Below, piece by piece: positions 116 to 34,828 of a stretch of DNA of 64,000 nucleotides. The notes beneath the pieces are model-generated. The model did not search any database, was not told the DNA's origin, and was given only the letters and a program-made list of their open reading frames with translations. This stretch comes from Lytechinus pictus (Eukaryota), in assembly GCF_037042905.1 (NCBI RefSeq), contig NC_087250.1, positions 24,988,001-25,052,000 on the forward strand, given 5' to 3'. The first letter of the stretch is position 1. Each line of letters starts with the position of its first letter. A program made the translations under genes and the position numbers.

Positions 116-116
<1 letters not shown>

Positions 117-6852: not shown

Positions 6853-7130
6853 TTAACCCTTGCTCAGGCATGGAATGCGATTCTTGAAAATCAACATAGG
6901 GCCTAAACATACTGCATAGTCTTTGCTGTAAGGATGTGCAATGTAGATTCGTAGAGCGGGCTGTGTGGGGTTTCTCATGAACAGAGGCTGTGATACTTCA
7001 CATATGAACTGAACTCCATGAATATCGCTTGAAGACAGAGCAAAGTACTGAAGATGACGCGTTGAGAAGGTAACCCTGCCTTCGGAGGTTTCGACAGATT
7101 TAGGAAGCAATGTCCTGTACCCGAATTCTC
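6853..7130 (-). CDS. ZU5 C-terminus / UPA-like start; last identifiable exon
   Basis: VTFSTRHLQYFALSS...LRIYIAHPY. It either ends at the stop at 6853 or splices at a gtatgt donor (exon end 6913) to exons I could not identify. Confidence 0.8.
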
Positions 7131-7308
7131 CTAGAATATGCAAAAGACAAGAAAATATTTAGTGTTAAAAATAAATTATCGTGTTGAGTCCAAATGTGAC
7201 TGCATATCAATATGAAGAGTTTCATATTAACACCCCCAAAGCAGACAAAAAATCAAACAAGAGAATTAATTCTTATTAGAAACGTATACTAACTAAATTT
7301 GATATTAC

Positions 7309-7653
7309 CTGGACCTATTTTGCTGTAAAGCTTTACACTCAAGTCTTTCTTCTTTTGCTTGTCTTGGTCTGGTGTGATGCAATGAGGAAGCACTGTAGTT
7401 GCCGATTTGAGAAGGTCATGGTTGAAGGAACACTGGATGATCGGTGTTATGAGAACCTCGCCAGCATCCAGGGGTAACTTGGATGAACTTCCTTTTAGGA
7501 CAGTGAGAGTAACAAGTGATCTCATTCCTTTGGGAATCGCTCCTGAAGGAATGGACACTCTGATGCCAATGTCATCTAGCTTCAGCTCTCCACCATCGTG
7601 ATCAATGATGCCATGTGTAAACGGAATAAAGAAACCCGGGTGATGTTGCATGG
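7309..7653 (-). CDS. ZU5 domain exon 2
   Basis: GIIDHDGGELKLDDIGIRVSIPSGAIPKG...ITPIIQC...LPHC is a classic ZU5; phase 1-1. Confidence 0.9.
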
Positions 7654-8292: not shown

Positions 8293-8541
8293 CTGTAGCT
8301 ATGTGTTCTGCAGCATCAGGAAAATTAAAAGCTTGAGCAATTTCAAGCAACCTCAGCCTTGTTCCTCCTTGTTTGACCCATCTCTGAAGCATTTGGAGAA
8401 TCACCCGACGTATCAAGGCAGGTTCAAAGGCCAAATACGATGACATCACCTGAAGAATTTCAGAAGCTGGTAGAACCAGCCGTTGGGTGAGGTCGATGAA
8501 GTCTGGAGTTGTACGAATCTTGGCAGAGATGTCACCAATAC
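8293..8541 (-). CDS. Death-fold domain 4 exon
   Basis: FIDLTQRLVLPASEILQV...VILQMLQRWVKQGGTRLRLLEIAQAFNFPDAAEHI; phase 1-1. Confidence 0.85.
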
Positions 8542-8752: not shown

Positions 8753-9046
8753 CTGTATAAGTATCTCCGATGTTGTATCCTTGAAGAAGCGCAGTCATCT
8801 TCTCTCCCTTTTCTTGTCTTCCTAAACGTTTACACCATTGATGAAGGAGTTTCCATGCTAGTCTCTCCATTAATGCAGGGTCGCGAGGAGCAATAAGACT
8901 TATGATGTCATTAACGTCCAAACGAAGAGCTTTAGCTACTTGTAAGGCCAACGTGACATTCGCTACTGGACGAACAACTGCACAAAGTTCTGAATTACCA
9001 GGTGAACCTCCATACTCGTCGAAGTCTCCAACAATTTCATCTTTGT
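8753..9046 (-). CDS. Death-fold domain 3 exon
   Basis: ALQVAKALRLDVNDIISL...LAWKLLHQWCKR...MTALLQGY; phase 1-1. Confidence 0.8.
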
Positions 9047-9445: not shown

Positions 9446-9586
9446 CTGACCCTAAGTATTCGATGATCTTCCAATCTTCATTGTCTTCCTTTTCATCTTG
9501 TGCTGGTTCTTGTTGTGGTGATGGGTCAGCATTCACTTCCGGGTCAAGAACAATCTCACCATCATCTTCATCTCTATTCTCATCAT
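9446..9586 (-). CDS. Acidic linker exon
   Basis: cag|DDENRDEDDGEIVLDPEVNADPSPQQEPAQDEKEDNEDWKIIEYLGS|gt; phase 1-1. Confidence 0.85.
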
Positions 9587-9909: not shown

Positions 9910-11791
9910 GGCAGTTTATAATCACTCGCGTCGCGTGCGGGTTCGTAATCACTCGCGTTTTGAATTTTTGGCGATTTTTTTATTTCGGTGCGATTTTTTT
10001 TTACGGTGTATTCAATGGGACAGACATGCAGAGAAATAAAATGAAATTGAAATTCGAGTTTCGTTTTAAGCCGGCAATTAAGTGCCTTAAAATAAAATGT
10101 ACTCGACTACTGTTCTAAGTACCAAGAATAGATAACACGCTTGATCCGCCCCAGACAGCTGGCAGCAGTCTGTTTCGAGGAGTTTTCAAACATTTTTTTT
10201 TTAATTTCTCTGTATTTGGTGAGTGGAGCCAACGGAGTTCAGCGGAACAACCAACATGATTAATAAACACAGAGACCGAAGCTTTTGGTCAAGATCAGCC
10301 CCTGTGGCTGTGCGCGCTCTCACGCGCGACGATCAAAGCCAAGGTACCGTACCGTACCGGTGCCTTTCTGAAAACTGAAGTTGTGGGCTACATCATTCAT
10401 CCAGGCCCCTGATCCAACTCCAAGCACGAGGTAACTCAGATTGAGCCAAAAATAATGGATTGGAAAACAGAAGACATGGCTTCAGGGAGTCACAGGTAAT
10501 AAAAAATTCCTAATATTACCAGTATTTGTTATTTATGTTTTACATTCTCAGTCTTCCCCTTATTTTATCTTCTCTTTCTCTTCTTCTACATCCTCCCCTC
10601 AATTTTCTCTTCTTAGTTTCATTTTTACCCCCCTTATGTCCTCCATCTTCTTTTTTCTTCTACTTCTCCTCCTCCTTCCTTCTTGCTTTTCTTCTTCAGC
10701 ACTATTTTCCTCCCTCATTTACGTTAGTGTAGAATAATTCACAAAGAAAGGGAGAAGCAAGATAAATAATGATATTATGAAATTGTAGCACCTCACTATG
10801 CTTTATAAATAATACCTCAGACTTCAGGAGAAATCCTCCAAAGCTAAATCGAGAGTAGCCTTTCCTCCTTTTTCTTTTATTCCTTTCTCCTTTCTTTCTC
10901 CCTTCCTTCCTTGCTTCTTTCTTCCTTTCTGTCTGTCTGTATTTTTTTTCTTTCTCTTTTTCTCCCTCTTTCCCTTCCTTTCTCCCCCCCCCCTCTCTCT
11001 CTCTTTTTTAGGGGGAGCATCCCCCCGCTTCCGCCGCCTATGGCTCTAAGATTTAATCTGGCGTGCAATGGCCTACCGTAATTTACGTGTAGGAATCATT
11101 TCACCTGATGAAATAGTGAATGCTTCCAGATCGTTTCGTGTTCCAGCAACAGTATTATCGTCTTCGGTCTCAATCATAAATATTAATATGTCATTGAAGC
11201 CCTCGCTGGCATGCTCATGCATTGGATGATTTTCACCGACCAAAAATAAACAACAACAAAGACATAAGAGATTCAGTGAAATTCAAGTTAGGTGTCAAGA
11301 GGCTAAGAGTGTCGAGAGAGCACGAAAAAGTAAAAACATGTACGACTTGCACAAGAATCTTTTTAAGGATACCGTAGACATTAGTTCGTGTGTTTGCGTG
11401 TGTTTGCGACCAATAACTTCAGTACAGTGCCGGTACCAAATTGATCAGTGTGCGGAGAAAGAAGTACATGTTGGGGTAAATGGGAGATAACGATGTGGGA
11501 TGTACACAAAATCAACAGAAATCAGGTCAAATATGTGGAATGTGATTATGTTAAAACAGTAGTCAAAATTTGCTTGTTATCTTAAAACAGTGGTCGAGAA
11601 CATTTTATTTAAGGCACTTGCCGGCTTAAAACGAAACTCGAATTTCATTTTCCCAGTACGTTTGTCCCATTGAAGACACCGTTAGAAAAAAAATCGCACC
11701 GAAATAAAAAAAAAAATCGCCAAAAATAAAAAACGCGAGTGATTACCAACGCGACGCGAGTGATTACGAACGCGAGTGAATATAATAAGCC
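9910..11791. mobile_element. Non-autonomous TIR DNA transposon (MULE/Merlin-like) with ~200-bp TIRs and 8-10-bp TSD
   Basis: ~9910-10120 is the inverted, diverged match of ~11581-11791. Direct repeat (cc)ggcataaa at 9902-9909 and 11792-11799. Confidence 0.75.
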
Positions 11792-12055
11792 GGCATAAAT
11801 GCTTGTTCGCGCTTGCTGTTTCAATTATCATTTGTAAATTTGTACCTTTTTTCTTCAAAGAACCATACAAAATTGTAAGGTATAGGTGGATATATGATTT
11901 CTTTCATTATGCTGTGAAATAAAAAGGACCATTGCAATAAATTTTGACAAGTTATATAAATTACTAAAATCGAACACCACTATACTTAAACAACTTAATA
12001 TCATTTTTTTTTCCATTAATTTTGCATGTTCTTTTCTTAACATGATGTCGATTAC

Positions 12056-12315
12056 CATTCATGTCCGTAGCTTTTGAGGCCTCTTTCAACGATTTCCAGA
12101 CGGTCCTAAGTTTCTCATCCGGTTTATCTGATGATATCTGAGATGCTTTCCACATCGAGAGCATTTGGATGTTAGCATCTTTCCTATTGTACAGGGATCG
12201 ATGCTCGATGTGGTGCAATTCTATCTCGTCAAATCCAAGTTGAACCCCGATTTCATAGAACTTCTCTTTGCTGATATGACGGGCAACTTGTAACAGCGTT
12301 GTATCAGGAATCTCT
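12056..12315 (-). CDS. Death domain 2 exon
   Basis: EIPDTTLLQVARHISKEKFYEIGVQLGFDEIELHHIE...ANIQMLSMWK; paralogous to DD1; phase 2-1. Confidence 0.9.
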
Positions 12316-12591
12316 CTGTATCATTGGATTGAAATCATGAATTCACTATTGGTAATTTAAGCCATTATTATACATATCAACTTGAAACAAGTCAAGTAAC
12401 AACATTGATATTTTTTCATCATTACTGTAATTCAGAAGACATATTCAATATTCAAATGATTTACGTCCAATTTCCAATGTTTTGAATAGAGTAGAAAATA
12501 TTTTCCCTTACACATTATTTTCATATATTGCTGGCTTTTTTTTTCATTTGTCTATGATAACACGTAAACTATACATACTAAAGAAACTTAC

Positions 12592-12628
12592 TCGGTCGGG
12601 TCAATGTCTTGATGGGAGTAGACGATTC
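12592..12628 (-). CDS. Probable linker mini-exon with non-canonical (TCG) acceptor
   Basis: Polypyrimidine tract ...ctctcacctCG|GIVYSHQDIDPT(E)|gtaagt. Its phase 1-2 is what joins DD1 to DD2. Confidence 0.6.
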
Positions 12629-13234
12629 CGAGGTGAGAGCAATGTAAAGAAATGATTATGACAAAATAGATTTGTAGTAGAGAGAGAAAAAAAAAATCAA
12701 TGATAAACTTAATGATCACTGAACGATTGCTCTACATAATAATGCATGTTGATCATCCTACAAACCTAAATGATCTTAAAATACAAACGAGAAAGTGGAG
12801 AATCATGCAAATCAATTTACATGCAATATACAAGAGTTATGTAGTGCCCTTTTTAGAAATTGCCAAATACCCAAACTGTCCATTTTTCTTTTAATTCACA
12901 AAACAAAGATGAAACCATTATTTATTTTCAATTAGTAACAAGATGAAAAACAAGACTAAAACCATTTTTAAATCCACAAACAAAAATTAAATTCACTACT
13001 CTTTTTTTTGTGATAAAGGACTACAGAGATCAATGCCCGAAGCTACAAACTGATAAGAAATTGTCATATATCCGTACTGTCCATTTTCAAGCAATATTTG
13101 TGATTTTACAAACGAAGATGCAATTAGGTCATGAATCTGGAAGAATTCATTCTGAAACTAGTAACAAAAATAATTCTTATCCATCTTTGAACATACAACA
13201 TGTTACATATTTACAACAAACGCGAAACTCAAAC

Positions 13235-13521
13235 CTGGAAAGGTTGTATCATTTGATGATGAGTTATATGATTCCATAAATGTGATGAGAGTATTCTTTG
13301 CTGCTGGGGTAGATGATTGTCTCCCCCTCCATACCACCAACATGTCATAGGCGGCTTGCTGCCTGTCTCTGAATCTCCTGTACTCTACCCGATCCAACTC
13401 AGCTATGGTGAAACCAAGAGCTATGCCCAAATCATAGAACTGATTTACGTCCATTGTCTGAGCTATTGTTAGGATGTCTATGTCCGATTGTAGGTCACTG
13501 TTCTTCACTTTTTCTATTGTC
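13235..13521 (-). CDS. Death domain 1 exon
   Basis: DILTIAQTMDVNQFYDLGIALGFTIAELDRVE...QAAYDMLVVWRGRQ is a death-domain pattern; phase 2-1. Confidence 0.9.
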
Positions 13522-13659
13522 CTAGAAGATAGATTGAAATAATAAATGCGTAGTGTTAAAATATCACAAACTTAACAATTATAATTTATAATTGGTATAG
13601 TGTCGAAAATTTGTCTATCTGACGGTCAATCGGATCGGGGTCGCCCTAGCCACTAACCC

Positions 13660-13731
13660 GTCTCTGTGGTCTAGTGGTTAAGGCACCGGCGTTCAAAGCT
13701 GGGGGCCCGGGTTCGATTCCCGGCAGAGACA
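13660..13731 (+). tRNA. tRNA-like gene with UCA anticodon (opal-suppressor-type cloverleaf; may be the head of a repeat family)
   Basis: GTCTCTG TG GTCT AGTGGTTA AGGC A CCGGC GT-TCA-AA GCTGG GGGC CCGGG TTCGATT CCCGG CAGAGAC A. All four stems pair, A and B boxes are intact, and a T6 terminator follows. G32 is atypical. Confidence 0.7.
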
Positions 13732-13920
13732 TTTTTTCGGCATAACCAATTTTTCCAAAGGGTAGATAGCTCTGGGGAACCTTGATTTAAGCTACGCCTA
13801 CCATTGTTCTCTTCATCCATTTCTTTACAATATTTAAATAAAAAGAGTTGCCAAAGCTGTTGTACATGTATAACTTTACACATTTATATATGTATATATA
13901 TATATATATATATATCTATA

Positions 13921-14521
13921 TCTTCATGGGGCGAGTCTACCACAATGGGCAACCTGAGCAACCAAGAGAGAATGCGACATGTTCCAGGTGTCTCCAGTGG
14001 GTCATCACTCGTCCAGGTGCATCGGAGAGCTGATATGCAGATACTGCAAGAAACCAGGGCACGTACAAAGTCAATGCCAGCAAAACGAGAAAGTGTCACG
14101 AAACGCCCGGGATACCGCAACAGTAATCCTTGATGTTGTCGATCAACCGAGATCAGTCTACATGGAGAAAGCAAAACATGTTGAAAAGAAACGCCAAGCA
14201 ACACTCGCGGACTTCCTGCGTCAACAACCTTCGCTCCCCATGAATGATCATCGTGAGAAAGCGTCCGTCGATACCGTTGCTACGTATGCATCCGACTCCG
14301 CAATTCAATATGTTGGCTCGCAAGCGGCAAGAAAGATACCGAAGAATAAGAAAAGTGAAAACAATCAAAGGTGCAATGATGGAAATAGCGCTGATGATGA
14401 AAGTGAAAGTGATCAATCCATCGTATCACCTGAAAGCCCACCAGTAGGGTCAACTGGCAACAAATCCACAGTAAAGCCTGTAAAGCGGAAGCAAAAAGCA
14501 AAGAAACCAAAACACAAGTAA
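13921..14521 (+). pseudogene. Tx1 ORF1 (gag-like) C-terminal remnant
   Basis: GRVYHNGQ...CSRCLQ/(frameshift)GHHSSRC...CRYCKKPGHVQSQC, then a low-complexity basic tail. Confidence 0.8.
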
Positions 14522-14570
14522 AGCTTGTTAATGATCAGATTGAAAATCAATGGAGTAACAAACTTGCACA

Positions 14571-17500
14571 GTGGATTCACCTATGCACTTTGTCTCGTTG
14601 AATGTTCGAGGAATAAGAAATAAACAAAAAAGAAATAAAATATGGTTATGGTTTAGACAACAAAAAGGTGATGTAATATTTCTTCAGGAAACTTTTTTGT
14701 CAAAGGATCTTGAAAAAACTATATATGCAGAATGGAATGGACCGTGTTATTTTAACCATGGCACCCATCATTCATGCGGAGTTGCTATACTTGTCCGAAA
14801 AAATGTAAACATAAATATTGTAAATGTTCACCACAAACACGATGGAAGAATTATTGCAGTACGTTTTATTATTGATGAAAATAAATACTTATGCCTCAAT
14901 GTATATGCACCAACAAAAAAGAACGAAAAGAACAAATTTTATAAAATGCTTCATGTTTGGTTAAAAGATGTAAAAGATGAAGATGATATAATTATTGCAG
15001 GTGGTGACTGGAATATAGTTCAGAATAAAAAGGTAGATACCTGTGGAATGTCATATACGCATTCAAAAAATGAAGTCTTTAATTTATTTCAGCAAAACAA
15101 TAATTTGAGTGATATTTGGAGACAATTTCATCCGTCAAAAAAACAGTTCACCTGGAGACAGATGTGTTTAGGTATCTTTTCACGTCTAGATTATTGGTTG
15201 ATAGCAAAACATTTAACTTGTAAGGTACACTCCACAGATATCAGGCCAGCATTCAAATGCGATCATAACGCTATTTCTCTTAAACTGAAAATGTGTAAAC
15301 AAAATAGGGGTAAAGGGTATTGGAAAATAAATAACTCTCTTCTAAATGATGAGAAGTACATAGCTGAGATAAAATGTGTTATACAGAAAGTAAAAGCAGA
15401 ATATTCATATTTAAATGATCAACTGAGATGGGAAATGTGTAAGATGAAAATTAAAGAATTAAGTATTAAATATTCTAAAGATAAACAAATTAGAAATAAA
15501 ATGTACTATTCCAAATTGGAAAAGGAATATACAGAAATTTGTGAGAAAATTGGTGTCAGTGCAAATGTACGAGATATTGAAGAGATGGAAAAAATAAAAT
15601 ATGAGTTAGATGCCTGGTATAAATATAAATGTAAAGGTGCGTTTGTGAGATCTAGGGATAAATGGCTAGAGCATGGTGAAACGTGCACGAAATATTTTTT
15701 ACAGTTGGAAAAAAGAAGAAGTGTTAAAAAAGAAATAAATTGTGTAGAAATTAAAGGTAAAATAGTACATGACGGTAAAAAAGTTTTAGAACATATATTA
15801 GATTATTATGAAAATCTGTATAAAGGGGATTGCAATCAAGATCAAGAGTTCGATGAATATTTTACAGGATTAAAATTAAACACTTTATCAGAAGAGCAAG
15901 CAAATTTATGTGAAGGTTTATTAACGGAAAGGGAGTGTTTTTATATACTCATGTCAATGAACACGAACAAAGCCCCAGGTAGCGATGGCCTGAGTGCAGA
16001 GTTTTACAGGTGCTTTTGGAATGATTTAAAAGATATGTTAATTAGTAGTTTAAATACTGGTTATGAGGAGAAAAAAATGTCATCCTCCCAAAGTCAAGCT
16101 GTTCTCACATTGTTATATAAAAAGGGTAATAAAGCTTTATTAGAAAATTGGAGACCAATATCACTCCTTAACATTGATTATAAAATAGCTGCAGGTGCAT
16201 TGGCAAAAAGAATGAAACAAATTATTCCGCATATTATTTCGGATGATCAATCGGGATTTAGGAAACATAGGTCGGCATTAGAGAATGTGCGACTTGTACA
16301 AGACGTTATTGACTATTTTAAAATGAATAATCAATCAGGTGTTATCATGTATATATATTTTCAAAAAGCGTTTGATAACGTTAGACACGATTTTCTGTTC
16401 ACTACTTTACGTAAGATGCAATTTAAAGAGCCATTTATTCATTGGATACAAACGTTTTACACAAATGCAAATGGTAATGTCTTGAACAATGGTTGGTTGT
16501 CACAAAAAAATTATTTTAATCGAGGTGTAAGGCAGGGATGCCCGTTGTCGGCTCTATTGTTCTTGGTAATTTCTGAAATATTAGCTCAAAAAATCAAACA
16601 AAATCCATTGATTAGAGGTATAGCTGTACCAACTAAAGAAATATCTCTAGCCCAGTACGCCGATGATACTATAGTATTCGCCAATGGAACAAATTCTGTA
16701 CAAAATATAATGACTGAGATTAATAGATTTGGAAATATAGCAGGGCCGAAAGTCAATTGGTCTAAATATAAAATAATGAAGTTAGATGAAAATATAGAGT
16801 TAAATGACCTAGAATGCACGGTCGATCCAGTAAAATGTCTTGGAATATATGTTGGTAAAAACCATGTTGATGTAGAAAAAAGAAATTGGGAAGGGAGACT
16901 TGGAAAAGTCGAAAATATACTTAATTTATGGAAAATGAGAAATCTGACTTACTTTGGAAAAATATCTGTCATTAAGATTTTAATAGCATCACAATTTGTT
17001 CATGTTGCTTCGGCAGTTCCTGTGCCCGATTATATTTCAAAGGCATTGAATAAAAAATTATATACATTTTTGTGGAATTCCAAAAAAAATAAAGTTAAGA
17101 GAAATGTATGTTTAAACAAAGAAATTGATGGTGGGTTAAACATGGTTGATATGAAAGCCAAATTTTCATCACTTCGATTAGCATGGATTTATAAATATAT
17201 GGATGAAATAAAGGGAGCATGGAAAACTCTTTTTACCTATTGGACAAATAAGATTGGTGGTTTTCCATTATGTTTACATTATAATTGTAATAGTGTAGAC
17301 ATTGTTAATTTAGGGAAAAGGTATAATCTACCCTCCTTTTATATCGATTTTCTATATGTTTGGGCAAATTTGAGATACCAAATTTTTTTTAAAATTACTG
17401 ATATTCCAAAACAAGTTTTTATGGAATAACAGTAATATAAAAATACAAAATGAAACACTAAATTTTAATAAATGGAGGAAATCTGGTGTATTGATGGTAA

Positions 17501-18340: not shown

Positions 18341-18674
18341 TTGATTAATTTGATTACTGTATATACTTTGTGATTTGTAAACTGTATTATAGAGATGTAA
18401 ATAAAGTCCCTCGAAAGAGGTTTAAAGAGAGAAAAAAAAATATATATATATATGTTGCAGTGCTCTATTATGCATGACGTAGCAACATAATTTTCAAAGT
18501 CTTTGCGGAATTGCGGCCGTTGTGAGGAGTTAATTGAAAATGATGTCGTCACACGTCCAACCGAGTCAAAAAGGATATTAAATGAAATAAATTCAATATC
18601 TATTTTTAAGGAACACATTGAGCCCCCTTGAACGGAAAAAAAGAATCTAACCGTTTTAACCGATAGAAACTTAC

Positions 18675-18720
18675 CTAATGAAGTTTGCCTGTTCAGAGGG
18701 AGTTTGGCTCTCCGGTCCAT
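18675..18720 (-). CDS. Linker mini-exon
   Basis: ttttag|DGPESQTPSEQANFI|gtaagt; phase 1-2. Confidence 0.85.
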
Positions 18721-19090: not shown

Positions 19091-19253
19091 CTGTATATTT
19101 AATGACAAAGGCAATAGATCGTGATATCCCAAGCTTTCCAGCCTGTGTTATCGTTATGGTTATCACTGCAAAATTTACATCGTCTTCAATGTGCGGTACG
19201 TACAGCGATATACATTGGCTCATCTTTGCTTGAAGATCCCTAAGAGAAACAAT
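19091..19253 (-). CDS. UPA-like exon
   Basis: cag|IVSLRDLQAKMSQCISLYVPHIEDDVNFAVITITITQAGKLGISRSIAFVIKYT|gt; phase 0-1. Confidence 0.85.
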
Positions 19254-19422: not shown

Positions 19423-19551
19423 CTGGCTTTCAACTTCTACACCCTCACGATGGCATGTGATCGTGACGTCACCAGACCTTGTTTCAAAGCTGAATGGAAC
19501 CGAGGGATGGCATCTACGGCACGACTGTTGCCTCGAATCCTCTTGTATAAC
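19423..19551 (-). CDS. UPA-like exon
   Basis: tag|VIQEDSRQQSCRRCHPSVPFSFETRSGDVTITCHREGVEVESQ|gtaatc; phase 0-0. Confidence 0.85.
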
Positions 19552-19894: not shown

Positions 19895-20142
19895 CACTTC
19901 GTTTCCAGGAAGGTCATTATACAACTGAAGATTAACTGCAAACTCTTGTCCTCTTTCGATCCTGTCTGGGATGTATGGAGTACACATAACTTGCTGTCGG
20001 ATCACATGTTGTTCAAGAGGAATCAGAACCCACCACTCAGCACAGTGGTTGATGTACAGCTCAAGATGTCTCTTGTACAGTCTGCAGTATGGTGGTTTGT
20101 CTGTTGAGCTAGATGATTGCTTTCTTGAAGTTCTTGGTAGAT
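19895..20142 (-). CDS. ZU5 C-terminus / UPA-like exon
   Basis: ...RHLELYINHCAEWWVLIPLEQHVIRQQVMCTPYIPD...VNLQLYNDLPGNEV; phase 1-0. Confidence 0.85.
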
Positions 20143-20454: not shown

Positions 20455-20796
20455 ACTTGATTGAGTCCCACACTCGGCAAACGATGTCTGGTTTCACCTG
20501 CTCTGGATTGACGACCAAGGAAGAGTGCGGGATAGTGATCTTAACGGGTTGGTTGAAGGACAAGGGTTGAGGGTCGCATTTGATTCCATAGCAAGCCATT
20601 GATTCATTTTTTGAGCTACCAACACCCGGATTGTCTCTTATGATGGTTAGGGTGATCTGACAAGAGTCGTCATGTGAAATGGCTCCTGTGGGAATGTACA
20701 TCGATACCCCATGGTCTTCTAACTTGATTTCTTGACTGGTATTACTTTTGACTTCTGCAGAAACCTCGACAGACTTGGATGGCCTATTAATGATTT
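20455..20796 (-). CDS. ZU5 domain exon 1
   Basis: EIKLEDHGVSMYIPTGAI...ITLTII...YGIKCDPQPLSFNQPVKITIPHS is the ZU5 signature; cag/gtaagt boundaries. Confidence 0.9.
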
Positions 20797-25223: not shown

Positions 25224-25420
25224 GGCACGATAGCTCAATCGGTAGTGAGGGGGTTTCGGATTCCGGTGGCTTCGGTCCGATTCCCACTTGGTGCGCTAGT
25301 GCCAAGTAAGGCATTTAAATGCCTTACTAGTAATGGTAGTAAGGCATTTTAATCCTCATTATAGGTCCCTCGGAGAGTACCTTAAGCCATCGGTCCTCTG
25401 GTTGCTTGTTTAGAAGCATT
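25224..25420 (+). mobile_element. tRNA-derived SINE (degenerate)
   Basis: ggcacgatagctcaatcggtag A-box and ggtccgattccc B-box-like sequence. Confidence 0.55.
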
Positions 25421-27435
25421 CATGCTTTCTTAGCAAATGAGGTAAAATGAAAATCGTCAAATCATAAACAATAATCAGTATTAAATTATAGGATATGATG
25501 CCAGCGCGAAGCGTGAGCTGGAAATTTCGAATTAAACGAATGATTTTAAACATGTTTTTAATGTAGAAAAAGATGAATATCTTACTAAACAAAAACGTTA
25601 GCGCAAAAGCGCGAGCTAAAATTGGGAGAGACTATATAAGAGCTAAAAATTGGACATACAGTATGCACATATTTGATAATGGACTGGATGCGTATTTAAC
25701 TAAACAATGTGAGCGCGAACGGCGAGCTATTTTCTTCTAATTTTCTAAGAAGTTGACACTTCAAGCATGTTTTTTTTTAAACATGCAGATAGCAAGTTGT
25801 TTATCTCATTTATTAATGCAAGTGCGAAGATCGAGTCGAAAATTTATTTGGCATCTTTTTGTAATCCCGTGTAGGGTGCCTATCTCGCTAAACCAAAATA
25901 AAATATACACTCGAATCGCGAGCAGAATACTTTGGGTATATTATCTTGAAAACGGGATACTTTCAGCTCCGTGTAAACATTCCGGACACTACACATGACC
26001 TCAGGCAGCGGGGAGAGGGGGGGGGGGGGGGGCAGAGGCAGTTGCGGCCAGAAATTTTCACCCCCCCCCCCTCCCCGATAAATTGTGCATGTCCCCTTTC
26101 GGATAATAGATCTTCCATCTTATTTGAAAATTCTTTTAATATTTGTGACATTAGAAACGATCGATATTCAATAGATGAACCAATTTAAATCGAAGAATTT
26201 AAGTTGTAAAAAACTTTTATTTTGGGTAAATCACGATTTTTTTTAACGTCATATTGCCATATACATGTATGTGTGTGTACTATTCCAAATTAAAATGCAT
26301 ATTTAGTAGACTTATAATTTGAAACTCCAAATATAAATGATCGCATATCAAAGGGAGTTAAAATTTCTTACAAATCCCTTCAAAAGGTCAAAATGCGTGA
26401 CTTTCGACAGTCTTTCAGATTTTACGCTAAAAAAGATACTTTCACGCAAAAGGGCACTTGGCATTCGCCCGTACGTTATTCCTCAGTATTTCCGCAAGAC
26501 TTTTAGCTGGGATGCAAAAAATTGACAAATTGTGCTATCCAATCAAAAACTCGCTTTATTATGTACTTATACTTTGTTATTAAATACTCGCTTAAGTATC
26601 TACTTACATGTAATTATGTACATAATGTACGGTATTTTCAATTTTTCTTTCAAAATGCGCACCTGGTAAAATGCACATTGTCTCCTTTCGGATAACATAA
26701 AATGAGATATCTTCCATCTTACTTGAAAATTCTTTTAATATTTGTGGCATTAGGATATTTACTATACATTCGATGGATAAACGAATTGAAATCGAAGAGT
26801 TTAAGTTGCGTAAAAAACTTCAAACTATTGATAGTTTTCACAAACTTTTATTTTGAGGAAATCGCGGTTTTATGTTTCACTGTGCTATATATGTGTGTGC
26901 AATATTCAAATTTGAAATGCATGTTTATGAGACTTATAATTTGAAACTCCAAATAAAAATAATTTCATATCAAAGATAATCTAAAATATGATGATAATCC
27001 GTCAAAATATCAAAATGCGTGATTTTCGACATTCTTTCAGATTTTACGCTAAAAATGACACTTTCACGCAAAATTGCGCTTGGCATCTGGCCGTACGCTA
27101 TTTCTGGGTATTTTTGCAAAACTATTAGCTGGGATGCCAAGCATTAGCAAGCATTAACAAATTTTGCCGTCCAAAGTATAAAAAAATAGTTTTGGCCGGT
27201 CTACCGCCCTATAAATGTTTTGTATTATTATTATTGTATTGTGTCTACGTGTGAGTAGGAACAGTGGTCATTGGTGGCAACTACCAAACCATTGTTGGAA
27301 GGATATTTTTTTCTTAATTACCCTGATTGTAAGTTACGTTCCAATTAACACGATTAAAAGTTAAGAATTCTAAATAAATGATAATTTGTATTCAGAAGTG
27401 ACAATAAGGTGAACGATTCATGTTATGTTTCTTAC

Positions 27436-27470
27436 CTCTATTAGACTGTACATCATCCGATGAAGGTGAT
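27436..27470 (-). CDS. Linker mini-exon
   Basis: tttcag|..SPSSDDVQSNR..|gtaaga; phase 2-1 bridges the flanking exons exactly. Confidence 0.8.
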
Positions 27471-27650
27471 CTGAAAGTAATCACAAACCAAATTAACTAT
27501 ATTTGAAGTCCTTTTTTTTGTGTAATATACAGTATATGCCATCTTTTCTCTACCAGGTATGAAATGAAAACATTGGTACATCTACTGTGTCTCGGAGGTG
27601 AAGTAGAAATGACTGTTCTTGTTTGCACACTGAACTGCTCATTTGCACTC

Positions 27651-27971
27651 TAATAATAATGATAATAATAATAATATACAGTTCTTGTATAGCGCATATC
27701 ACATTATGAATAATGTCTCTATGACAGCGCTTCCAAAGGACTTGGATATTATTACCACAGCTGTAGCTTGGCGGCCGTAAGTACTCAGATTACAGCGCAC
27801 ACGCATTTCAAGGAATAAATTCCTGCCAGGTAACCATTCACCTCACCTGGGTCGAGTGCAGCACAATGTGGATGAATTACTTGCTGAAGGAAACTACAAC
27901 ATGGCTGGGATTTCAACCCACGACCCTCTGTTTCAAAGTCCGGAGACCAATCCACTGGGCCACAACGCTCC
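27651..27971 (-). mobile_element. tRNA-derived SINE with LINE-like 3' tail and (TAA)n
   Basis: Minus strand: ggagcgttgtggcccagtgg...gggttgaaatccc head, central gctgcactcgacccaggtg core, gcgctatacaagaactg(tat)n tail. Confidence 0.85.
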
Positions 27972-28199
27972 ACTAACCACCCTAAATGATGCAAGGTGCA
28001 CTTCCCCAAAAGAATGTAATTCTTCTCCCACTAATTTTACCATTGATAGTGCATAAATTAGCAGCAACCTCGAGAGTTGGAAACTTTACCCCTTGTCTGT
28101 TTCTTAGTTAGTGCACAGCATGGTGAATATTTTGTTTAGTACTGTCCATCAAGCTTATTCCCAACTTTTTCATTTACCAACAGTAGTTGAAATAATCAC

Positions 28200-28357
28200 C
28201 GTGACAATATCATCTGCCTAACTCGCTCATCTTTGGCATAGTGGATCGGTAGGTTGCCTGTCTCGTCCTGTACGTTTAGCTTGGCGCCATTCTCAATGAG
28301 ATAAAACACCAACGACTCATTTGGAGATAACCTGCCATTGTAGTACTCGTCGGATAT
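28200..28357 (-). CDS. Terminal (capping) ankyrin exon
   Basis: cag|ISDEYYNGRLSPNESLVFYLIENGAKLNVQDETGNLPIHYAKDERVRQMILS|gt; phase 0-2. Confidence 0.9.
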
Positions 28358-28845
28358 CTGAAAAAGAGAACAGCTTTCATTATTTACTTGAAAAGTACAA
28401 CCTGCTTTTACATGGGAATATTTTGTTTTAAGAAATGATTACGCTAGCCAATACGAATACATTTGCAGTGTCCCCTACAATCACTCAATTGGTTAGCTAT
28501 ATATATATATTATAATAATGTTAATATTCTGGGTCGTAAGTCTATAGACGCCCGTCGCTGTAATGAAATGATAAAATGTTTCAAAGCAATTAGTTTGTTC
28601 CATGGAAATGCATTATATTAACGTTAATGAAGGGATACTTTTCAGCAGAATGATCTTCTATCATTAAGCGAATTTAATTCAAAGCTACATGGTGAGTTGT
28701 AACCTTTGATATCTGGATTAAGACAAGTTTAAGCCAGTTTTACAACCTATATTTTGATCATTTATGATGTCTTCTAGAACACTTGTATAAGTCCTATCAA
28801 TATTGCAAACAATGTTATGGAGCCCCGTTCCTTTGAATAAATCAC

Positions 28846-29028
28846 CTCTCTGAGTGTATCAGTGTTTTGAACTATCACGTTGTTCTTGTAGCATAATCTG
28901 ATAGCTTTATGAAGACAGGTCTGGCCGTCAGAAGACTGCAAATTGAGATCACATCCATTGGATATTAACTTTTCGATGATAGCTGTATGGCCATGTATTA
29001 TAGCAAGATGGATGGGTGCTGTATCGTA
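28846..29028 (-). CDS. Ankyrin-repeat exon
   Basis: cag|YDTAPIHLAIIHGHTAIIEKLISNGCDLNLQSSDGQTCLHKAIRLCYKNNVIVQNTDTLRE|gt; 183 nt, phase 0-0. Confidence 0.9.
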
Positions 29029-29428
29029 CTGGATGGAAAGACAGATAATCTCCGTATAACTAAAGCAAAAACATTTTTGCGGGCTAATTTTCCATTGTCA
29101 CTGACCTGCCTACAGCTTTAACATTAATAAGCGTTAACATAGTGATGAATGGGCATTTCCAGTGTTCCATTTTTAGTTTCCATGGCATTTCTGATCATTT
29201 TGAAGGCTAAATACTAAGATAATCGTGTCTAGCCCATGTGTAATTTGTCCCGGCTCCTTTTGAAACTTAGCATCTTTGTCTTAAATGATGGTGGGTAAGT
29301 TATAATCTACAAAATAAAAAACACAATCCTTTATCGAATGTACATTACAGAAATAGTCCGAATATAAATATAGAAATAGAACAATAAAGGAAAATTAAAG
29401 TACAGTTCCTTCCAAGAAAATTAAGTAC

Positions 29429-32400
29429 CTTGGTATTCAACTTGTTTCGTGTTGCCTTATTCACCTCAGCTCCATCGCTGAGCAGATAGTCGGTGATATC
29501 AAGATGACCATGCATAACCGCAATGTGTAATGCAGTTGAACCAGTACCATCTCCTTTATTCACCTCAGCTCCTTTGCTAATCAGGTATTTAGTGATGTCA
29601 AGATGACTATTCTGTACAGCATTGTGTAATAGAGTCAGACCATCTTCTCTCGCTGCGTTCACTTCAGTGCCTTGACTAATGAAGTATGAAATGATATCAA
29701 GATGACCCTTCTCTGCAGCGCTGTGACATACAATATTAACGTCAGCTCCTTTGCTGATCAGATACTCCGTAACATCATAATGATGATGTTTAACTGCACA
29801 GTGCAAGGCGGTTAGTCCATCTATCCCAAACTTGTTCACCTCAGCGCCTTTACTTATAAGATGTTTAGTAACATCAAGATGGCCACCCTCAGCAGCGATG
29901 TGTAAAGCTGTCCATCCACCATCATTTCCCTTATTGACCTGAGCTCCTTCATTTAGTAGATATTTGGTGATATCGAGATGGCAATCCTTAGAAGCAAGGT
30001 GTAGTGCAGTTGAGCCATTATTAGTGTTATTATTCACCTCAGCTCCTTGACTAATCAAATATTTAGTGATGCCGAGATGACCATTCTGTACAGCACTGTG
30101 TAATAGAGTCCGACCATCTTCTCTTGCTGTGTTCACTTCAGCTCCTTGACTAATGAAGTAAGTAATGACATCAAGATGTCCCTTCTCAGCAGCAGTGTGA
30201 CATACAATATTAATGTCAGCTCCTTGACTCATCAGATACTTGAGTACATCAACGTGACGATTGTTAGCAGCAATGTGTAATGCAATCAAACCATCATTAT
30301 CTCTTTTATTTACCTCAGCCCCTTGACTGATCAGATACTTGATGACGTCGACGTGACCATTTCTAGCAGCACTGTGTAATGCAATCAAACCATCATTATC
30401 TCTTTTATTTACCTCAGCCCCTTGACTGATCAGATACTCGCTGACGTCGACGTGACCATTTTTAGCAGCACTGTGTAATGCAGTCCGACCATCTTCTCTT
30501 GCTGAATTTACTTCAGCTCCTTGACTTATGAAGTAAGTAATGACATCAAGATGGCCCTTCTCTGCAGCAGTATGACAAACAGAATTAACGTCAGCTCCTT
30601 TGCTGATCAGATACCCCGCGGTATCTTGATGATGATATTTAGCTGCACAGTGTAAGGCGGTGAGCCCGTCTATTCCGAACCTGTTCACCTCTGCTCCTTT
30701 GCTGATCAGGTATTTAGTAATATCAAGATGACCATTCTGTACAGCAGTGTGTAATACAGTCCGACCATCATTATCACCTTTATTAACCTCAGCTCCATGA
30801 CTGATCAGATATTTGATAACGTCAATAAGACCTTTGTCAACAGCTCTGTGTAATGCTGTAATTCCCTCATTATCCTCCTTATTTACCTCAGCCCCTTCAC
30901 TGATCAGATACTTGGCGACGTCAACATGACTTTTGTAAGCAGCACTGTGTAATGCAGTCTGACCATTATTATCTCCCTTATTAACCTCAGCTCCATGACT
31001 GATCAGATATTTGATGACGTTAATAAGACCTTTGTCAACAGCTCTGTGTAATGCTGTAATTCCCTCATTATCCTCCTTATTTACCTCAGCCCCTTCACTG
31101 ATCAGATACTTGGCGACGTCAACATGACCTTTGTAAGCAGCACTGTGTAATGCAGTCCAACCATCATCTCTTCCCTTATTAACCTCAGCCCCTTGACTGA
31201 TCAGATACTTGATGACGTCAACATGACCATTGTAAGCAGCACTGTGTAATGCAGTCAAACCATCATTATCTCCCTTATTAACCTCAGCTCCTTGACTGAT
31301 CAGATACTTGATGACGTCAACATGACCATTGCAAGCAGCACTGTGTAATGCAGTCCTACCATCATCTCTTCCCTTATTAACCTCAGCCCCTTGACTGATC
31401 AGATACTTGATGACGTCAACATGACCATTGTAAGCAGCACTGTGTAATGCAGTCAAACCATCATTATCTCCCTTATTAACCTCAGCTCCTTGACTGATCA
31501 GATACTTGATGACGTCAACATGACCATTGTAAGCAGCACTGTGTAATGCAGTCCTACCATCATCTCTTCCCGTATTAACCTCAGCTCCTTGACTGATCAG
31601 ATACTTGATGACGTCAACATGACCATTGTAAGCAGCACTGTATAATGCAGTCCAACCATTATTATCTCCCTTATTAACCTCAGCACCATGACTGATCAGA
31701 TACTTGATGACGTCAACATGACCATTGTAAGCAGCAATGTGTAATGCAGTCCAACCATTATTATCTCCCTTATTAACCTCAGCTCCTTGACTGATCAGAT
31801 ACTTGATGACGTCAACATGACCATTGCCAGCAGCACAGTATAATGCAGTCCAACCATTATTATCTCCCTTATTAACCTCAGCTCCTTGACTGATCAGATA
31901 CTTGATGACGTCAACATGACCATTGTCAACAGCACTGTATAATGCAGTCCAACCATTATTATCCTCCTTATTAACCTCAGCTCCTTGACTGATCAGATAC
32001 TTGATGATGTCAACATGACCATTGTAAGCAGCACTGTGTAATGCAGTCCAACCATCATTATCTCTCTTATTAACCTCAGCTCCTTGACTGATCAGATACT
32101 TGATGACGTCAACATGACCATTGTCAGCAGCACTGTATAGTGCAGTCCAACCATTATTATCTCCCTTATTAACCTCAGCACCATGACTGATCAGATACTT
32201 GATGACGTCAACATGACCATTGTCAACAGCACTGTATAATGCAGTCCAACCATTATTATCTCCCTTATTAACCTCAGCTCATTGACTGATCAGATACTTG
32301 ATGACGTCGACGTGACCATTTCTAGCAGCACTGTGTAATGCAATCAAACCATCATTATCTCTTTTATTTACCTCAGCCCCTTGACTGATCAGATACTCGC

Positions 32401-34828
32401 TGACGTCGACGTGACCATTTTTAGCAGCACTGTGTAATGCAGTCCGACCATCTTCTCTTGCTGAATTTACTTCAGCTCCTTGACTTATGAAGTAAGTAAT
32501 GACATCAAGATGGCCCTTCTCTGCAGCAGTATGACAAACAGAATTAACGTCAGCTCCTTTGCTGATCAGATACCCCGCGGTATCTTGATGATGATATTTA
32601 GCTGCACAGTGTAAGGCGGTGAGCCCGTCTATTCCGAACCTGTTCACCTCTGCTCCTTTGCTGATCAGGTATTTAGTAATATCAAGATGACCATTCTGTA
32701 CAGCGGTGTGTAATACAGTCCGACCATCATTATCACCTTTATTAACCTCAGCTCCATGACTGATTAGATATTTGATGACGTCAATAAGACCTTTGTCAAC
32801 AGCTCTGTGTAATGCTGTAATTCCCTCATTATCCTCCTTATTTACCTCAGCCCCTTCACTGATCAGATACTTGGCGACGTCAACATGACCTTTGTAAGCA
32901 GCACTGTGTAATGCAGTCCAACCATCATCTCTTCCCTTATTAACCTCAGCCCCTTGACTGATCAGATACTTGATGACGTCAACATGACCATTGTAAGCAG
33001 CACTGTGTAATGCAGTCAAACCATCATTATCTCCCTTATTAACCTCAGCTCCTTGACTGATCAGATACTTGATGACGTCAATATGACCATTGTTAGCAGC
33101 ACTGTGTAATGCAGTCTGACCATCATTACCTCCCTCATTAACCTCAGCTCCTTGACTGATCAGATACTTGGTGACGTCAACATGACCATTGTTAGCAGCA
33201 CTGTGTAATGCAGTCCAACCATTATTATCTCCCTTATTAACCTCAGCTCCTTGACTGATAAGATACTTGATGACGTCAACATGACCATTGTAAGCAGCAC
33301 TGTGTAATGCAGTCCAACCATCATATCTACCCTTATTAACCTCAGCTCCTTGACTGATCAGATACTTGATGACGTCAACATGACCATTCTTAGCAGCACT
33401 GTGTAATGCAGTCCGACCATCATTATCTTCCTTATTAACCTCAGCTCCTTGACTGATCAGATACTTGATGACGTCAACATGACCATTGTCAGCAGCACTG
33501 TGTAATGCAGTCCAACCATCATCTCTACCCTTATTAACCTCAGCTCCTTGACTGATCAGATACTTGGTGACGTCAACATGACCATTGTAAGCAGCACTAT
33601 GTAATGCAGTCCAACCATCATCTCTACCCTTATTAACCTCAGCTCCTTGACTGATCAGATACTTGATGACGTCAACATGACCATTGTCAGCAGCACTGTG
33701 TAATGCAGTCCAACCATCATCCCTACCCTTATTAACCTCAGCTCCTTGACTGATCAGATATTTGGTGACGTCAACATGACCATTGTCAGCAGCACTGTGT
33801 AATGCAGTCCAACCATCATATCTACCCTTATTAACCTCAGCTCCTTGACTGATCAGATACTTAACGACGTCAACATGACCTTTGTAAGCAGCACTATGTA
33901 ATGCAGTCCAACCATTATTAGCTCCCTTATTAACCTCAGCTCCTTGACTGATCAGATACTTGATGACGTCAACATGACCTTTGTAAGCAGCACTGTGTAA
34001 TGCAGTCCAACCATTATTATCTCCCTTATTAACCTCAGCTCCTTGACTGATCAGATACTTGATGATGTCAACATGACCATTCTTAGCAGCACTGTGTAAT
34101 GTAGTCCAACCATCATTATCTCCCTTATTAACCTCAGCTCCTTGACTGATCAGATACTTGATGACGTCAACATGACCATTGTAAGCAGCACTGCGTAATG
34201 CAGTCCAACCATCATCTCTACCCTTATTAACCTCAGCACCTTGACTGATCAGATACTTGGTGACGTCAATATGACCATTGTTAGCAGCACTGTGTAATGC
34301 AGTCCAACCATTATTATCTCCCTTATTAACATCAGCTCCTTGACTGATCAGATACTTGGTGACGTCAACATGACCTTTGTAAGCAGCACTGTGTAATGCA
34401 GTCCAACCATTATTATCTCCCTTATTAACCTCAGCTCCTTGACTGATCAGATACTTAACGACGTCAACATGACTATTCTCAGCAGCACTGTGCAATGCAG
34501 TCCAACCATCATTTCTCCCCTTATTAACCTCAGCTCCTTGACTGATCAGATACTTGATGACGTCAACATGACCATTCTTAGCAGCAATGTGTAATGCAGT
34601 CCAACCATAATCTCTCCCCTTATTAACCTCAGCTCCTTGACTGATCAGATACGTGATGACGTCAACACGACCATTCTTAGCAGCATTTAACAACACATTA
34701 CTCTCCTCAATATCTGTTCTAGCACTGCTGACATTTCCTGATATATTTTCCTGAGTGTTTCCCAATACATTTTGTGCAGATGTGTTTTCCATTCTGATTT
34801 CTGACTTTCGATACTGCTTCAGCAACAT
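29429..34828 (-). CDS. Giant ankyrin-repeat exon (~54 repeats, mostly 99 bp) with internal TGA at 32279-32281
   Basis: ORFs 32279-34828 and 29345-31456 are in the same frame. Consensus GxxxGWTALHSAAxxGHVDVIKYLISQGAEVNK. Donor AAG|gtactt at 29429, phase 0. Confidence 0.95.

Follow-up and report, generated by a model that had tools for sequence, protein, structure and literature searches.

Does a 28-kb stretch of the Lytechinus pictus genome hold one gene that joins a very long ankyrin stack to ZU5, UPA and death-fold domains, and to which known proteins is its product related? A sequence-only reading had proposed a 17-exon minus-strand gene with consistent splice phases, encoding a PIDD-like cytosolic sensor of a new class. 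Coordinates given here are positions in the window, i.e. the 64,000-nt stretch of DNA that was analysed, and the focal gene is the 17-exon minus-strand gene at 6853..34828.

Gene model and ankyrin array

The exon ends of the focal gene were set by tblastn of relatives, and the 35-nt exon 4 was located by homology. The resulting model bears out the proposed exon number and phasing: all 16 introns are of the GT..AG type, the phases are consistent, there is no frameshift, and the coding sequence comprises 8,574 nt, or 2,857 codons, over 28 kb (Table 1). A full-length LINE is found inside intron 9.

Table 1. Features of the focal gene, in window positions
Feature	Position	Strand	Description
Whole 17-exon coding model	6853..34828	-	2,857 codons; ATG at 34828, stop 6853-6855
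Exon 1	29429..34828	-	1,800 codons; ~54 ankyrin repeats (33-residue units and four 26-residue short units)
Higher-order repeat copy 1	32250..34208	-	1,959 nt, ~20 repeats; ends approximate, from 99-nt identity bins
In-frame TGA, codon 850	32279..32281	-	conserved Gly codon of ankyrin repeat, exon 1
Higher-order repeat copy 2	30291..32249	-	ends approximate
Exon 2	28846..29028	-	divergent ankyrin repeat
Exon 3	28200..28357	-	final ankyrin repeat, weak
Exon 4	27436..27470	-	35-nt linker exon; restores phase between exons 3 and 5
Exon 5	20455..20796	-	first ZU5 (ZU5a); alternative donor 20457 in RefSeq model P0003
Exon 6	19895..20142	-	UPA, first part
Exon 7	19423..19551	-	UPA, middle part
Exon 8	19091..19253	-	UPA, last part
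Exon 9	18675..18720	-	short linker
Exon 10	13235..13521	-	death domain 1 (DD1)
Exon 11	12592..12607	-	16-nt linker exon
Exon 12	12056..12315	-	death domain 2 (DD2)
Exon 13	9446..9586	-	acidic linker, predicted disordered
Exon 14	8753..9046	-	death fold 3 (DD3); no Pfam hit, profile match to DD1
Exon 15	8293..8541	-	death fold 4 (DD4), divergent six-helix bundle
Exon 16	7309..7653	-	second ZU5 (ZU5b)
Exon 17	6853..7130	-	beta-rich C-terminal tail and stop codon

At the focal locus RefSeq has only a 379-residue fragment. This model, P0003, 100% identical to the focal gene across exons 5, 8 and 10, starts at a Met inside exon 5, lacks the ankyrin exons and reads into an intron at its end. In the RNA data, which comprised two contig sets and about 25% of each of two raw RNA-seq runs (tissue unspecified), none of the 15 joints listed out of 44 matched a predicted intron. 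Both observations would fit a split arrangement, which we consider very unlikely: a first gene with ankyrin repeats only, whose end would lie within or downstream of exon 1, and a second one for the ZU5 and death domains, with its start close to exon 5. The donor at the end of exon 1 is a phase-0 GT, and the frame reaches exon 5 only when exons 2-4 are used together. In the RefSeq relative P0004 the counterparts of exons 2, 3, 4 and 5 belong to one and the same protein. Ankyrin repeats are likewise joined to the ZU5 part within the single RefSeq models P0002, P0006, P0041 and P0210; P0002, P0041 and P0210 additionally bear death domains and a second ZU5, and in P0041 and P0210 the ankyrin repeats are combined with the whole C-terminal module. 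The start of P0003 at an internal Met of the domain, and its intron read-in, resemble a truncated prediction. The 28-kb focal gene is a single gene of L. pictus.

The repeat array of exon 1 is far beyond chance (99-nt period, 40.5 copies, 85% match). With Pfam Ank one half of the exon gave 24 stretches and the other 27, and 51 loop motifs were counted in the ankyrin array; after splitting of four 59-residue units and one 66-residue unit the gene has ~55-57 repeats, in agreement with the ~56 proposed before. The 5.4-kb exon consists of two higher-order copies of 1,959 nt each, which are 82-100% identical per 99-nt bin over most of their overlap and 100% identical over a stretch of ~300 nt.

Domain architecture and nearest known proteins

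In the focal gene the ankyrin repeats are followed by ZU5, UPA, two death domains, an acidic linker, two death folds, a further ZU5 and a short beta tail. In single-exon searches Pfam ZU5 matched exon 5 (3e-12) and exon 16 (9e-15). The Pfam Death profile scored 22.5 bits on exon 10 (cutoff 22.6) and 19.9 bits on exon 12, was not significant on exon 15 (E 0.07), and exon 14 had no Pfam match. In hhalign comparisons the values were 99.1% for DD1-DD2, 96.0% for DD1-DD3 and 97.9% for ZU5a-ZU5b, whereas a UPA after the second ZU5 reached a probability of only 17%. The domain order of the sequence-only reading therefore stands up to the second ZU5, with a fourth death fold that is predicted mostly from structure; its C-terminal UPA is not borne out by this comparison.

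The structural evidence for that fold comes from a stand-in, P0091, which is 74% identical to the focal gene and on which the structure of DD3-DD4 was judged. Its model contains 161 residues with pLDDT >=90 and two bundles that pack together, one of five to six helices and one of six. The top VIA-align match was the FADD death domain (Z 10.5, rmsd 2.3, 82/87 residues) and at least 44 of the 50 matches listed were DD, DED, CARD or PYD, a structural match that does not separate DD3 from DD4. The best PDB profile match of death fold 4, likewise not significant, is the RIPK1 death domain (E 0.12). An AlphaFold model of the relative P0012 (mean pLDDT 70.6) was compared by Foldseek. The best match was the ZU5-UPA-DD unit of UNC5b (3g5b; E 2e-10, 404 columns, 383-residue chain), followed by ZU5-ZU5-UPA-DD of ankyrin-B (4d8o; E 3e-8). 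These predicted structures support the presence of a ZU5-UPA-DD unit of the UNC5/ankyrin fold, in line with the supramodule proposed earlier. The second ZU5 is closest in a PDB sequence search to that of ZO-1 (E 3.5e-7), and also matches UNC5B (E 1e-3).

The family shares with UNC5 a single ZU5 that is directly followed by UPA and a death domain. UNC5 itself spans the membrane as a netrin receptor and has Ig and TSP ectodomains, whereas the focal protein has no membrane segment; it begins with an ankyrin solenoid and has three more death folds and another ZU5. The tandem death domains behind a ZU5 module resemble those of MACC1/SH3BP4 (ZU5, UPA, SH3, tandem death domains), which are not known to have the solenoid, the second death-domain pair or the second ZU5, and have an SH3 that is absent here.

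PIDD1 (LRR, ZU5-ZU5-UPA, DD) is likewise cytosolic and places a repeat domain before a ZU5/UPA/death-domain unit; in the focal gene ankyrin repeats replace the LRR, one ZU5 replaces two, and there are four death folds. The PIDD/RAIDD death-domain complex (2of5, Z 9.5) is among the top death-fold matches of the P0091 model, and the PDB sequence search returned no PIDD chain. At the place of the PIDD cut site the first ZU5 of the focal gene carries H-S-S, in keeping with the His-x-Ser of PIDD, with a nucleophile in third place. Other family members have Leu, Ala or Asn there, and the cut-site residues thus vary within the family; self-cleavage is therefore not a family-wide feature.

Canonical ankyrins (24 ANK, ZU5-ZU5-UPA, DD) also carry ankyrin repeats N-terminal to ZU5, UPA and death domain, the P0091 model also matches the death domain of ankyrin-G (Z 8.7), and some relatives of the focal gene are auto-named 'ankyrin-1-like'. 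The resemblance in domain order is superficial, and we regard it as hardly conceivable that this sea-urchin gene is orthologous to canonical ankyrin. Only one ZU5 precedes its UPA, against two in ankyrins; it has four death folds instead of one, a further ZU5 at the C-terminus and a single exon with 55-57 near-identical repeats; the PDB sequence search gave no ankyrin chain at E <=1; and it belongs to a multigene family of ~27-28 loci, whereas echinoderms are reported to keep a single canonical ankyrin gene (PMC5135030). As the sequence-only reading held, the gene is none of ankyrin, UNC5 and PIDD1: its architecture combines known modules of their type, the ZU5-UPA-DD parts included, in an arrangement unlike any of these.

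The urchin family and the in-frame TGA

The DD3, DD4 and ZU5b exons had 27, 28 and 32 matches in the L. pictus genome, clustered on contigs C6, C8, C9 and C21; the family is tandemly clustered and comprises about 27-28 loci. Species were named for 55 of the 59 related proteins, all 55 from three urchin species, and distant matches come from Diadema. The relatives found here are from echinoids only, which agrees with the expanded lineage-specific family that had been anticipated. RefSeq labels them 'uncharacterized', as in the case of P0210 (L. pictus, 2,478 aa), P0041 and P0012 (S. purpuratus, 930 aa), which represent other loci and are 44-57% identical to the focal model over 946-975 of its final 997 residues, with the same domain order throughout. 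A literature search found no published description of these three proteins. Since these full-architecture relatives are in RefSeq and all modules are known, the term 'new class' was an overstatement.

The solenoid varies as had been suggested. Across seven paralogues the ankyrin frames range from 430 to 3,421 codons; the longest, in a neighbour 62.7 kb away, is unbroken and holds ~100 repeats. This neighbour spans ~21 kb and has tblastn matches for 12 of the 15 downstream exons E3-E17 (E4, E9 and E11 unmatched). Amino-acid differences between canonical units (43 in the focal gene, 91 in the neighbour) concentrate at 8 of the 33 repeat positions, which fall on the usual ankyrin binding face. 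In the 43 focal and 91 neighbour units, respectively, nucleotide diversity at these positions is 0.35 and 0.32 for codon positions 1 and 2 taken together, and 0.30 and 0.24 at four-fold sites, a ratio based on only five four-fold sites and given without a formal test; in the remaining codons it is 0.086 and 0.036. Fungal NLR-type proteins, whose near-identical ANK, WD or TPR repeats differ from one another at binding positions, would appear to work alike: in both, one exon encodes a long array of very similar repeats, paralogues differ in repeat number, and variation is confined to the binding face. The focal gene, of an animal lineage, has no NACHT/NB-ARC ATPase, and ZU5 and death folds form its output module; any non-self recognition by it would be hypothetical.

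The ankyrin exon is not an open frame: the sequence-only reading missed an in-frame TGA at codon 850. It lies near the 3' end (in gene orientation) of higher-order copy 1, where 36 of 49 repeats have the Gly codon GGA. The focal copy could be a pseudogene of recent origin, a null or silent allele, or the site of a base error in the assembly. That it is a recently dead or silent member, truncated after 849 residues of ankyrin repeats and with its downstream exons out of use, is a serious possibility towards which we do not quite lean; the family may then function through other copies. In line with this, RNA depth was 0 on the exon-only bins 28389-29602, 19891-20497 and 18677-19283, and 0-0.13 in bin 12000-12606 (same runs and contig sets, tissue unspecified), the RefSeq annotation is a fragment from an internal Met, and intron 9 carries its LINE whereas the intact neighbour is more compact. 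Against it, the 8.5 kb of coding sequence are otherwise open, with canonical introns and no frameshift, and the RNA runs are from unspecified tissue. The sole defect is a single G-to-T relative to the majority GGA, and the surrounding block shares 94% identity with its sister copy, so that the TGA might represent an allele or an error of the consensus. The focal gene is one copy, possibly broken, of an urchin-only ankyrin/ZU5/death-fold family.

Proposed role

Neither a signal peptide-like start nor a membrane segment was seen in the focal protein (highest 19-residue hydropathy 1.31), which suggests a cytosolic protein, compatible with its earlier placement. By its looks it would be an intracellular sensor or scaffold. 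The long solenoids of canonical ankyrins are where many membrane proteins bind, and a lineage-specific offshoot of ankyrin-like adaptors could serve in structure or trafficking rather than in death or immune sensing, its solenoid anchoring membrane or cytoskeletal proteins and its ZU5 and death folds providing fixed protein contacts. The nearest solved folds, UNC5b and ankyrin-B, and the likeness of the second ZU5 to that of ZO-1, a junction scaffold, are consistent with such a role. We nevertheless consider it rather unlikely, as some 27-28 paralogues in clusters, with repeat numbers that differ greatly and variation centred on the binding face, are unusual for a housekeeping scaffold, and as echinoderms are reported to keep one canonical ankyrin gene (PMC5135030).

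With some reserve we favour a sensor-type working model for a family member with a variable ankyrin stack, two ZU5 domains and four death folds. The solenoid would be the variable ligand-binding part, and the ZU5-UPA unit would keep the adjacent death domains closed, by analogy with UNC5b and ankyrin. The four death folds could be released by ligand binding, or by cleavage within ZU5 or the acidic linker, and might then seed a death-fold oligomer and recruit death-domain adaptors. The sensor reading is plausible, and immune or death signalling, a PIDD-like action and the nucleation of a signalling platform are candidate roles suggested by the domain content of this urchin family.

Gene model and ankyrin exon

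The minus-strand gene was assembled from 16 coding blocks, placed by stop-to-stop frames and by tblastn of the relatives P0002, P0012 (930 residues, S. purpuratus) and P0003, plus a 35-nt exon that was recovered via homology and closes the gap in phase that exons 3 and 5 would otherwise leave. P0003 is a 379-residue RefSeq fragment, annotated as "uncharacterized protein" of Lytechinus pictus, with 100% identity to exons of the studied gene. Joined, the 17 exons comprise 8,574 nt (2,857 codons); with splice sites chosen by coordinate, every intron is of the GT..AG type and all phases fit. The exon 5/6 joint can be drawn in two ways, with donor and acceptor at 20457/20132 according to P0003 versus 20455/20142 as supported by the paralogues, and both keep the frame. 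On inspection, the sequence on either side of the gene (35000-64000 and 1-6800) contained no match to the exons of the family and no long frame encoding a recognisable protein.

Features of the locus and of its nearest paralogue (window coordinates unless a contig is named)
Feature	Position	Strand	Basis or remark
Ankyrin exon (exon 1)	34828-29429	-	99-nt unit array
In-frame TGA, codon 850	32279-32281	-	inside ankyrin exon
LINE-type retrotransposon	14559-17429	+	unbroken 956-codon frame, antisense in intron 9
tRNA-like sequence	13660-13731	+	Rfam tRNA 60.9 bits; ARAGORN anticodon TCA, labelled SeC
tRNA-like match	59482-59540	-	Rfam 32.7 bits
tRNA-like match	59644-59719	+	Rfam 47.7 bits
Purine-rich low-complexity stretches	10540-11100 and 38340-38760		composition
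Gene surroundings	35000-64000 and 1-6800		frames inspected by eye, at least 110 and at least 90 codons
Neighbour paralogue	C6 (NC_087250.1): 24932185-24953166	-	outside window; 62.7 kb from studied gene, nearest paralogue

The exon order and phases agree with those of the sequence-only reading, which had proposed a 17-exon gene with consistent phases and about 56 ankyrin repeats, and which had overlooked that the ankyrin exon is interrupted by a TGA. We count 55-57 repeats, four of them short (26 residues); by exon, Pfam Ank stretches number 51 for exon 1 and one for exon 2, with a weak match for exon 3. The repeat unit of exon 1 is 99 nt long, present in 40.5 copies with an 85% match, and is overlaid by a higher-order tandem duplication of 1,959 nt (approximately 30291-32249 versus 32250-34208). 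In 99-nt bins, identity between the two copies is 82-100% across the greater part of their overlap and 100% across about 300 nt. Some 30 nt separate the TGA from the junction of the two copies. The TGA stands in place of a repeat's Gly codon, for which 36 of 49 repeats have GGA; a single G-to-T change explains it. Selenocysteine was set aside, as the codon is the only one of its kind and stands at a conserved Gly position.

RNA data of L. pictus (tissue unstated), comprising two raw RNA-seq runs and two contig sets, were mapped to positions 12000-30200. The depth was 0 in all exon-only bins of this region, so far as these four sets go, and no expression of the studied copy was seen in them. 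Cover was restricted to intronic repeats (13214-14427, 22319-23532 and 27175-28388), and none of the predicted introns is among the 15 RNA joints listed (29 more joints exist beyond these). In the relatives, the exon joins are present in RefSeq predictions. Decay of the studied copy is a live alternative, to be read with the TGA and the uncovered exons on one side and the fitting splice phases on the other.

Very high summed RNA contig depth was found over the intronic stretches 22319-23532, 25300-26100 and 27700-28030, where many reads continue into unlike sequence; these are dispersed repeats with transcribed copies somewhere in the genome. Some joints, for example 22897 to 26010, have G-runs between their ends and resemble artefacts of the repeats or of the library. 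The tRNA-like sequence in intron 9, 139 nt upstream of exon 10, is surrounded by a region (13214-14427) in which RNA depth is high, variant bases are numerous and reads fit in part, and looks like a tRNA-derived dispersed repeat, not a single-copy gene. RNA depth is near zero over the LINE in the same intron, the frame of which holds an endonuclease/exonuclease/phosphatase domain (Pfam, 2e-12) and a reverse transcriptase (Pfam, 1e-41). One of the two tRNA-like matches far upstream of the gene is a tRNA-Ile (GAT) according to ARAGORN. The two purine-rich stretches are probably simple repeats; their frames are rich in Lys, Glu, Arg and Gly on one strand and in Ser, Phe and Leu on the opposite strand.

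ZU5, UPA and death folds

In single-exon searches Pfam ZU5 was found in exon 5 (ZU5a, 3e-12) and exon 16 (ZU5b, 9e-15). The Pfam Death profile reached 22.5 bits for exon 10 (DD1) and 19.9 bits for exon 12 (DD2) against a cutoff of 22.6, and an E-value of 0.07 for exon 15 (DD4), while exon 14 (DD3) had no Pfam match in such a search; on whole relatives the Death profile scored 42-63 bits, above the cutoff. Profile comparison within the family (hhalign probabilities) linked ZU5a to ZU5b (97.9%) and DD1 to both DD2 (99.1%) and DD3 (96.0%, E 4e-9), and gave low values for DD1-DD4 (13%), DD3-DD4 (17.6%) and the UPA of exons 6-8 versus the C-terminal tail (17%). DD1 and DD2 are thus recognisable as death domains from sequence (Pfam Death, and hhalign to each other). 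A DD4 exon profile built from 20 loci retrieved nothing significant among PDB sequences, the best match being the RIPK1 death domain (E 0.12).

Structure was predicted for P0012, which is 57% identical to the studied gene over 946 residues (mean pLDDT 70.6, pTM 0.41). The model starts with a ZU5 beta domain and a beta region of 176 residues, followed in order by a bundle of six helices, a shorter one (DD2 is truncated in the P0012 gene model), a disordered acidic stretch, two further bundles and a second ZU5. Foldseek ranked the ZU5-UPA-DD structure of UNC5b first (3g5b; E 2e-10, 404 columns) and the ZU5-ZU5-UPA-DD structure of ankyrin-B second (4d8o; E 3e-8). The model of this 57% identical relative places the gene in the ZU5-UPA-DD supramodule structural class.

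For the acidic linker (exon 13), DD3 and DD4 we used P0091 as a stand-in (74% identical to the studied gene). Its model has 161 residues at a pLDDT of at least 90 and shows two helical bundles. With a predicted bundle of five to six helices (pLDDT >90) and its hhalign link to DD1, DD3 qualifies as a death fold; DD4 is predicted as a six-helix bundle (pLDDT >90). A Foldseek search of the DD3-DD4 model against the PDB gave no match at E <=0.001. VIA-align, run against 48,161 chains, ranked the FADD death domain on top (Z 10.5, rmsd 2.3, 82 of 87 residues). For helical bundles, Z values under about 13 count as weak, and the match covers DD3-DD4 jointly, not one bundle; at least 44 of the 50 matches listed are death-fold proteins. 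Because of these Pfam, hhalign and VIA-align results, including the weak Z and the unsplit DD3/DD4 match, three death domains are counted as shown and the fourth as likely. For the acidic linker, conservation of an LC3-interaction-type motif was considered and dropped, as P0012 lacks the aromatic residue.

The reading from sequence had listed four death folds and a C-terminal ZU5, possibly followed by a UPA, in a protein that is none of ankyrin, UNC5 and PIDD1. DD1, DD2, DD3 and the second ZU5 were confirmed and DD4 is likely, whereas a UPA behind ZU5b stays a candidate (hhalign probability 17%). The distinction from the three known proteins holds. Canonical ankyrins (ANK1-3) have a 24-repeat membrane-binding domain, two tandem ZU5 domains before the UPA and one C-terminal death domain, whereas the studied gene has 55-57 repeats, one ZU5 followed by the UPA, four death folds (the fourth a likely one) and a C-terminal ZU5. 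Ankyrin is moreover single-copy in echinoderms (one gene, according to PMC5135030), versus about 27-28 loci here. Canonical ankyrin was rejected because of the single ZU5 before the UPA, the four death folds and these many loci. Solved structures show little similarity in sequence (ZO-1 ZU5, 3.5e-7; UNC5B, 1e-3; TNFR1 death domain, 0.04), and no ankyrin chain is among these matches.

The UNC5 netrin receptors are type I membrane proteins with an Ig and TSP ectodomain. The studied gene has no Pfam match to Ig or TSP; it is not UNC5 because it lacks a membrane segment (maximal 19-residue hydropathy 1.31). PIDD1 carries N-terminal leucine-rich repeats, whereas the N-terminal part of the studied gene matches ankyrin repeat families only. 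PIDD1 also cleaves itself at His-Phe-Ser motifs in its ZU5 domains; at the corresponding places the studied gene has H-S-S (first ZU5) and H-C-I (second ZU5), and the third place in the first ZU5 is S, T, C, L, A or N in other family members. It is not PIDD1, since the leucine-rich repeats are absent and the cut-site residues are not conserved.

An echinoid family with a variable solenoid

Exon queries against the L. pictus genome yielded 27 matches with the DD3 exon, 28 with that of DD4 and 32 with that of ZU5b; among the last are two exons that each matched in two pieces, and two weak matches on another contig. The first ZU5 gave 72, about 25 of them close. The exons of DD3, DD4 and ZU5b share the same genomic clusters, and the resulting 27-28 or so loci lie on C6 (24.5-25.0, 17.8-18.1 and 6.1-6.2 Mb) and on contigs C8, C9 and C21. 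A word-based protein search retrieved 59 relatives; the 55 with a named species are all uncharacterized and all derive from S. purpuratus, L. variegatus or L. pictus, in line with the proposed expanded, lineage-specific family. Among longer proteins four relatives were found, one of them a 2,478-residue L. pictus model (P0210) that combines ankyrin repeats with the complete C-terminal module. Single alignments with P0012, P0031, P0041, P0210 and P0211 cover 946-975 of the last 997 residues, and the same exon-by-exon module order recurs in several loci and species.

HMMER found only 218 matches at E <=0.001 (46 at <=1e-30) among 1.84 billion representatives. Ten distant matches that were looked up came from Diadema (four), S. 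purpuratus (three), Lytechinus (two) and the sea star Acanthaster (one), the last being a different multi-DD protein. Unusual stacking of death domains was observed in other echinoderm proteins, P0174 (Acanthaster planci) and P0155 (Diadema setosum): one of the two combines ten Death stretches with a ZU5 and a death-like domain of bacterial type, and the second, a HOIP-like RBR ligase, carries three death domains. Full-text literature searches, which did not extend to Robertson et al. 2006 (sea-urchin apoptosis genes, possibly with death-domain architectures listed), found no description of the architecture or of the LOC identifiers. We firmly conclude that the studied gene is a member of an echinoid-restricted family that combines known modules in a new order.

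The longest ankyrin frames of seven paralogues measure 3,421, 1,819, 1,278, 1,150, 863, 560 and 430 codons. The longest, unbroken, belongs to the neighbour paralogue and holds 97 loop motifs, or about 100 repeats; 12 of the 15 downstream exons (E3-E17) were matched there by tblastn at 67-100% identity. If spliced like the studied gene, this neighbour would encode about 4,400-4,500 residues. With 55-57 and about 100 repeats, each mostly within one exon, the arrays are remarkable as proteins; a review (PMC8229355) puts the highest number of ankyrin repeats in one protein at 33.

Among the canonical units (43 in the studied gene, 91 in the neighbour) the amino-acid differences are concentrated at eight of the 33 positions, and in the framework codons all differences are synonymous. 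For these two sets of units, the nucleotide diversity in the eight variable codons (positions 1 and 2) is 0.35 and 0.32; five four-fold sites give 0.30 and 0.24, and the remaining codons 0.086 and 0.036. By this crude measure, the diversity at the variable positions would be at least neutral and possibly diversifying. The eight positions are presumably the ones that are randomised when ankyrin binders are designed. The principle behind that randomisation is confirmed in PMC8683736.

Possible function and meaning

By analogy with the behaviour of these modules elsewhere, the ankyrin solenoid may bind, the ZU5-UPA part may gate the death domains and the death folds may oligomerise. It is conceivable, at a low probability, that the family consists of sea-urchin cytosolic receptors, in which a giant ankyrin solenoid recognises and a platform of double ZU5 and four death folds provides the output. 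Unequal recombination among the near-identical 99-nt units would have diversified the solenoid, giving paralogues with anything between about 8 and about 100 repeats and variation centred on the binding face. Such receptors would be to animals what the hypervariable repeat receptors are to fungi and plants, and would add a new arm to echinoderm innate immunity. That the family acts as a scaffold is a live alternative.

Automatic annotation fragments these genes, as the studied locus shows, and domain censuses therefore undercount them. The family would be a natural test of the gating of death domains by ZU5-UPA. Sea urchins are a reference case of innate immune gene expansion, and echinoderm innate immunity includes expanded TLR, NLR and SRCR families. 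With about 27-28 clustered genes in which a rapidly changing binding surface is linked to death-fold signalling parts, the family would be a candidate for a further recognition system.
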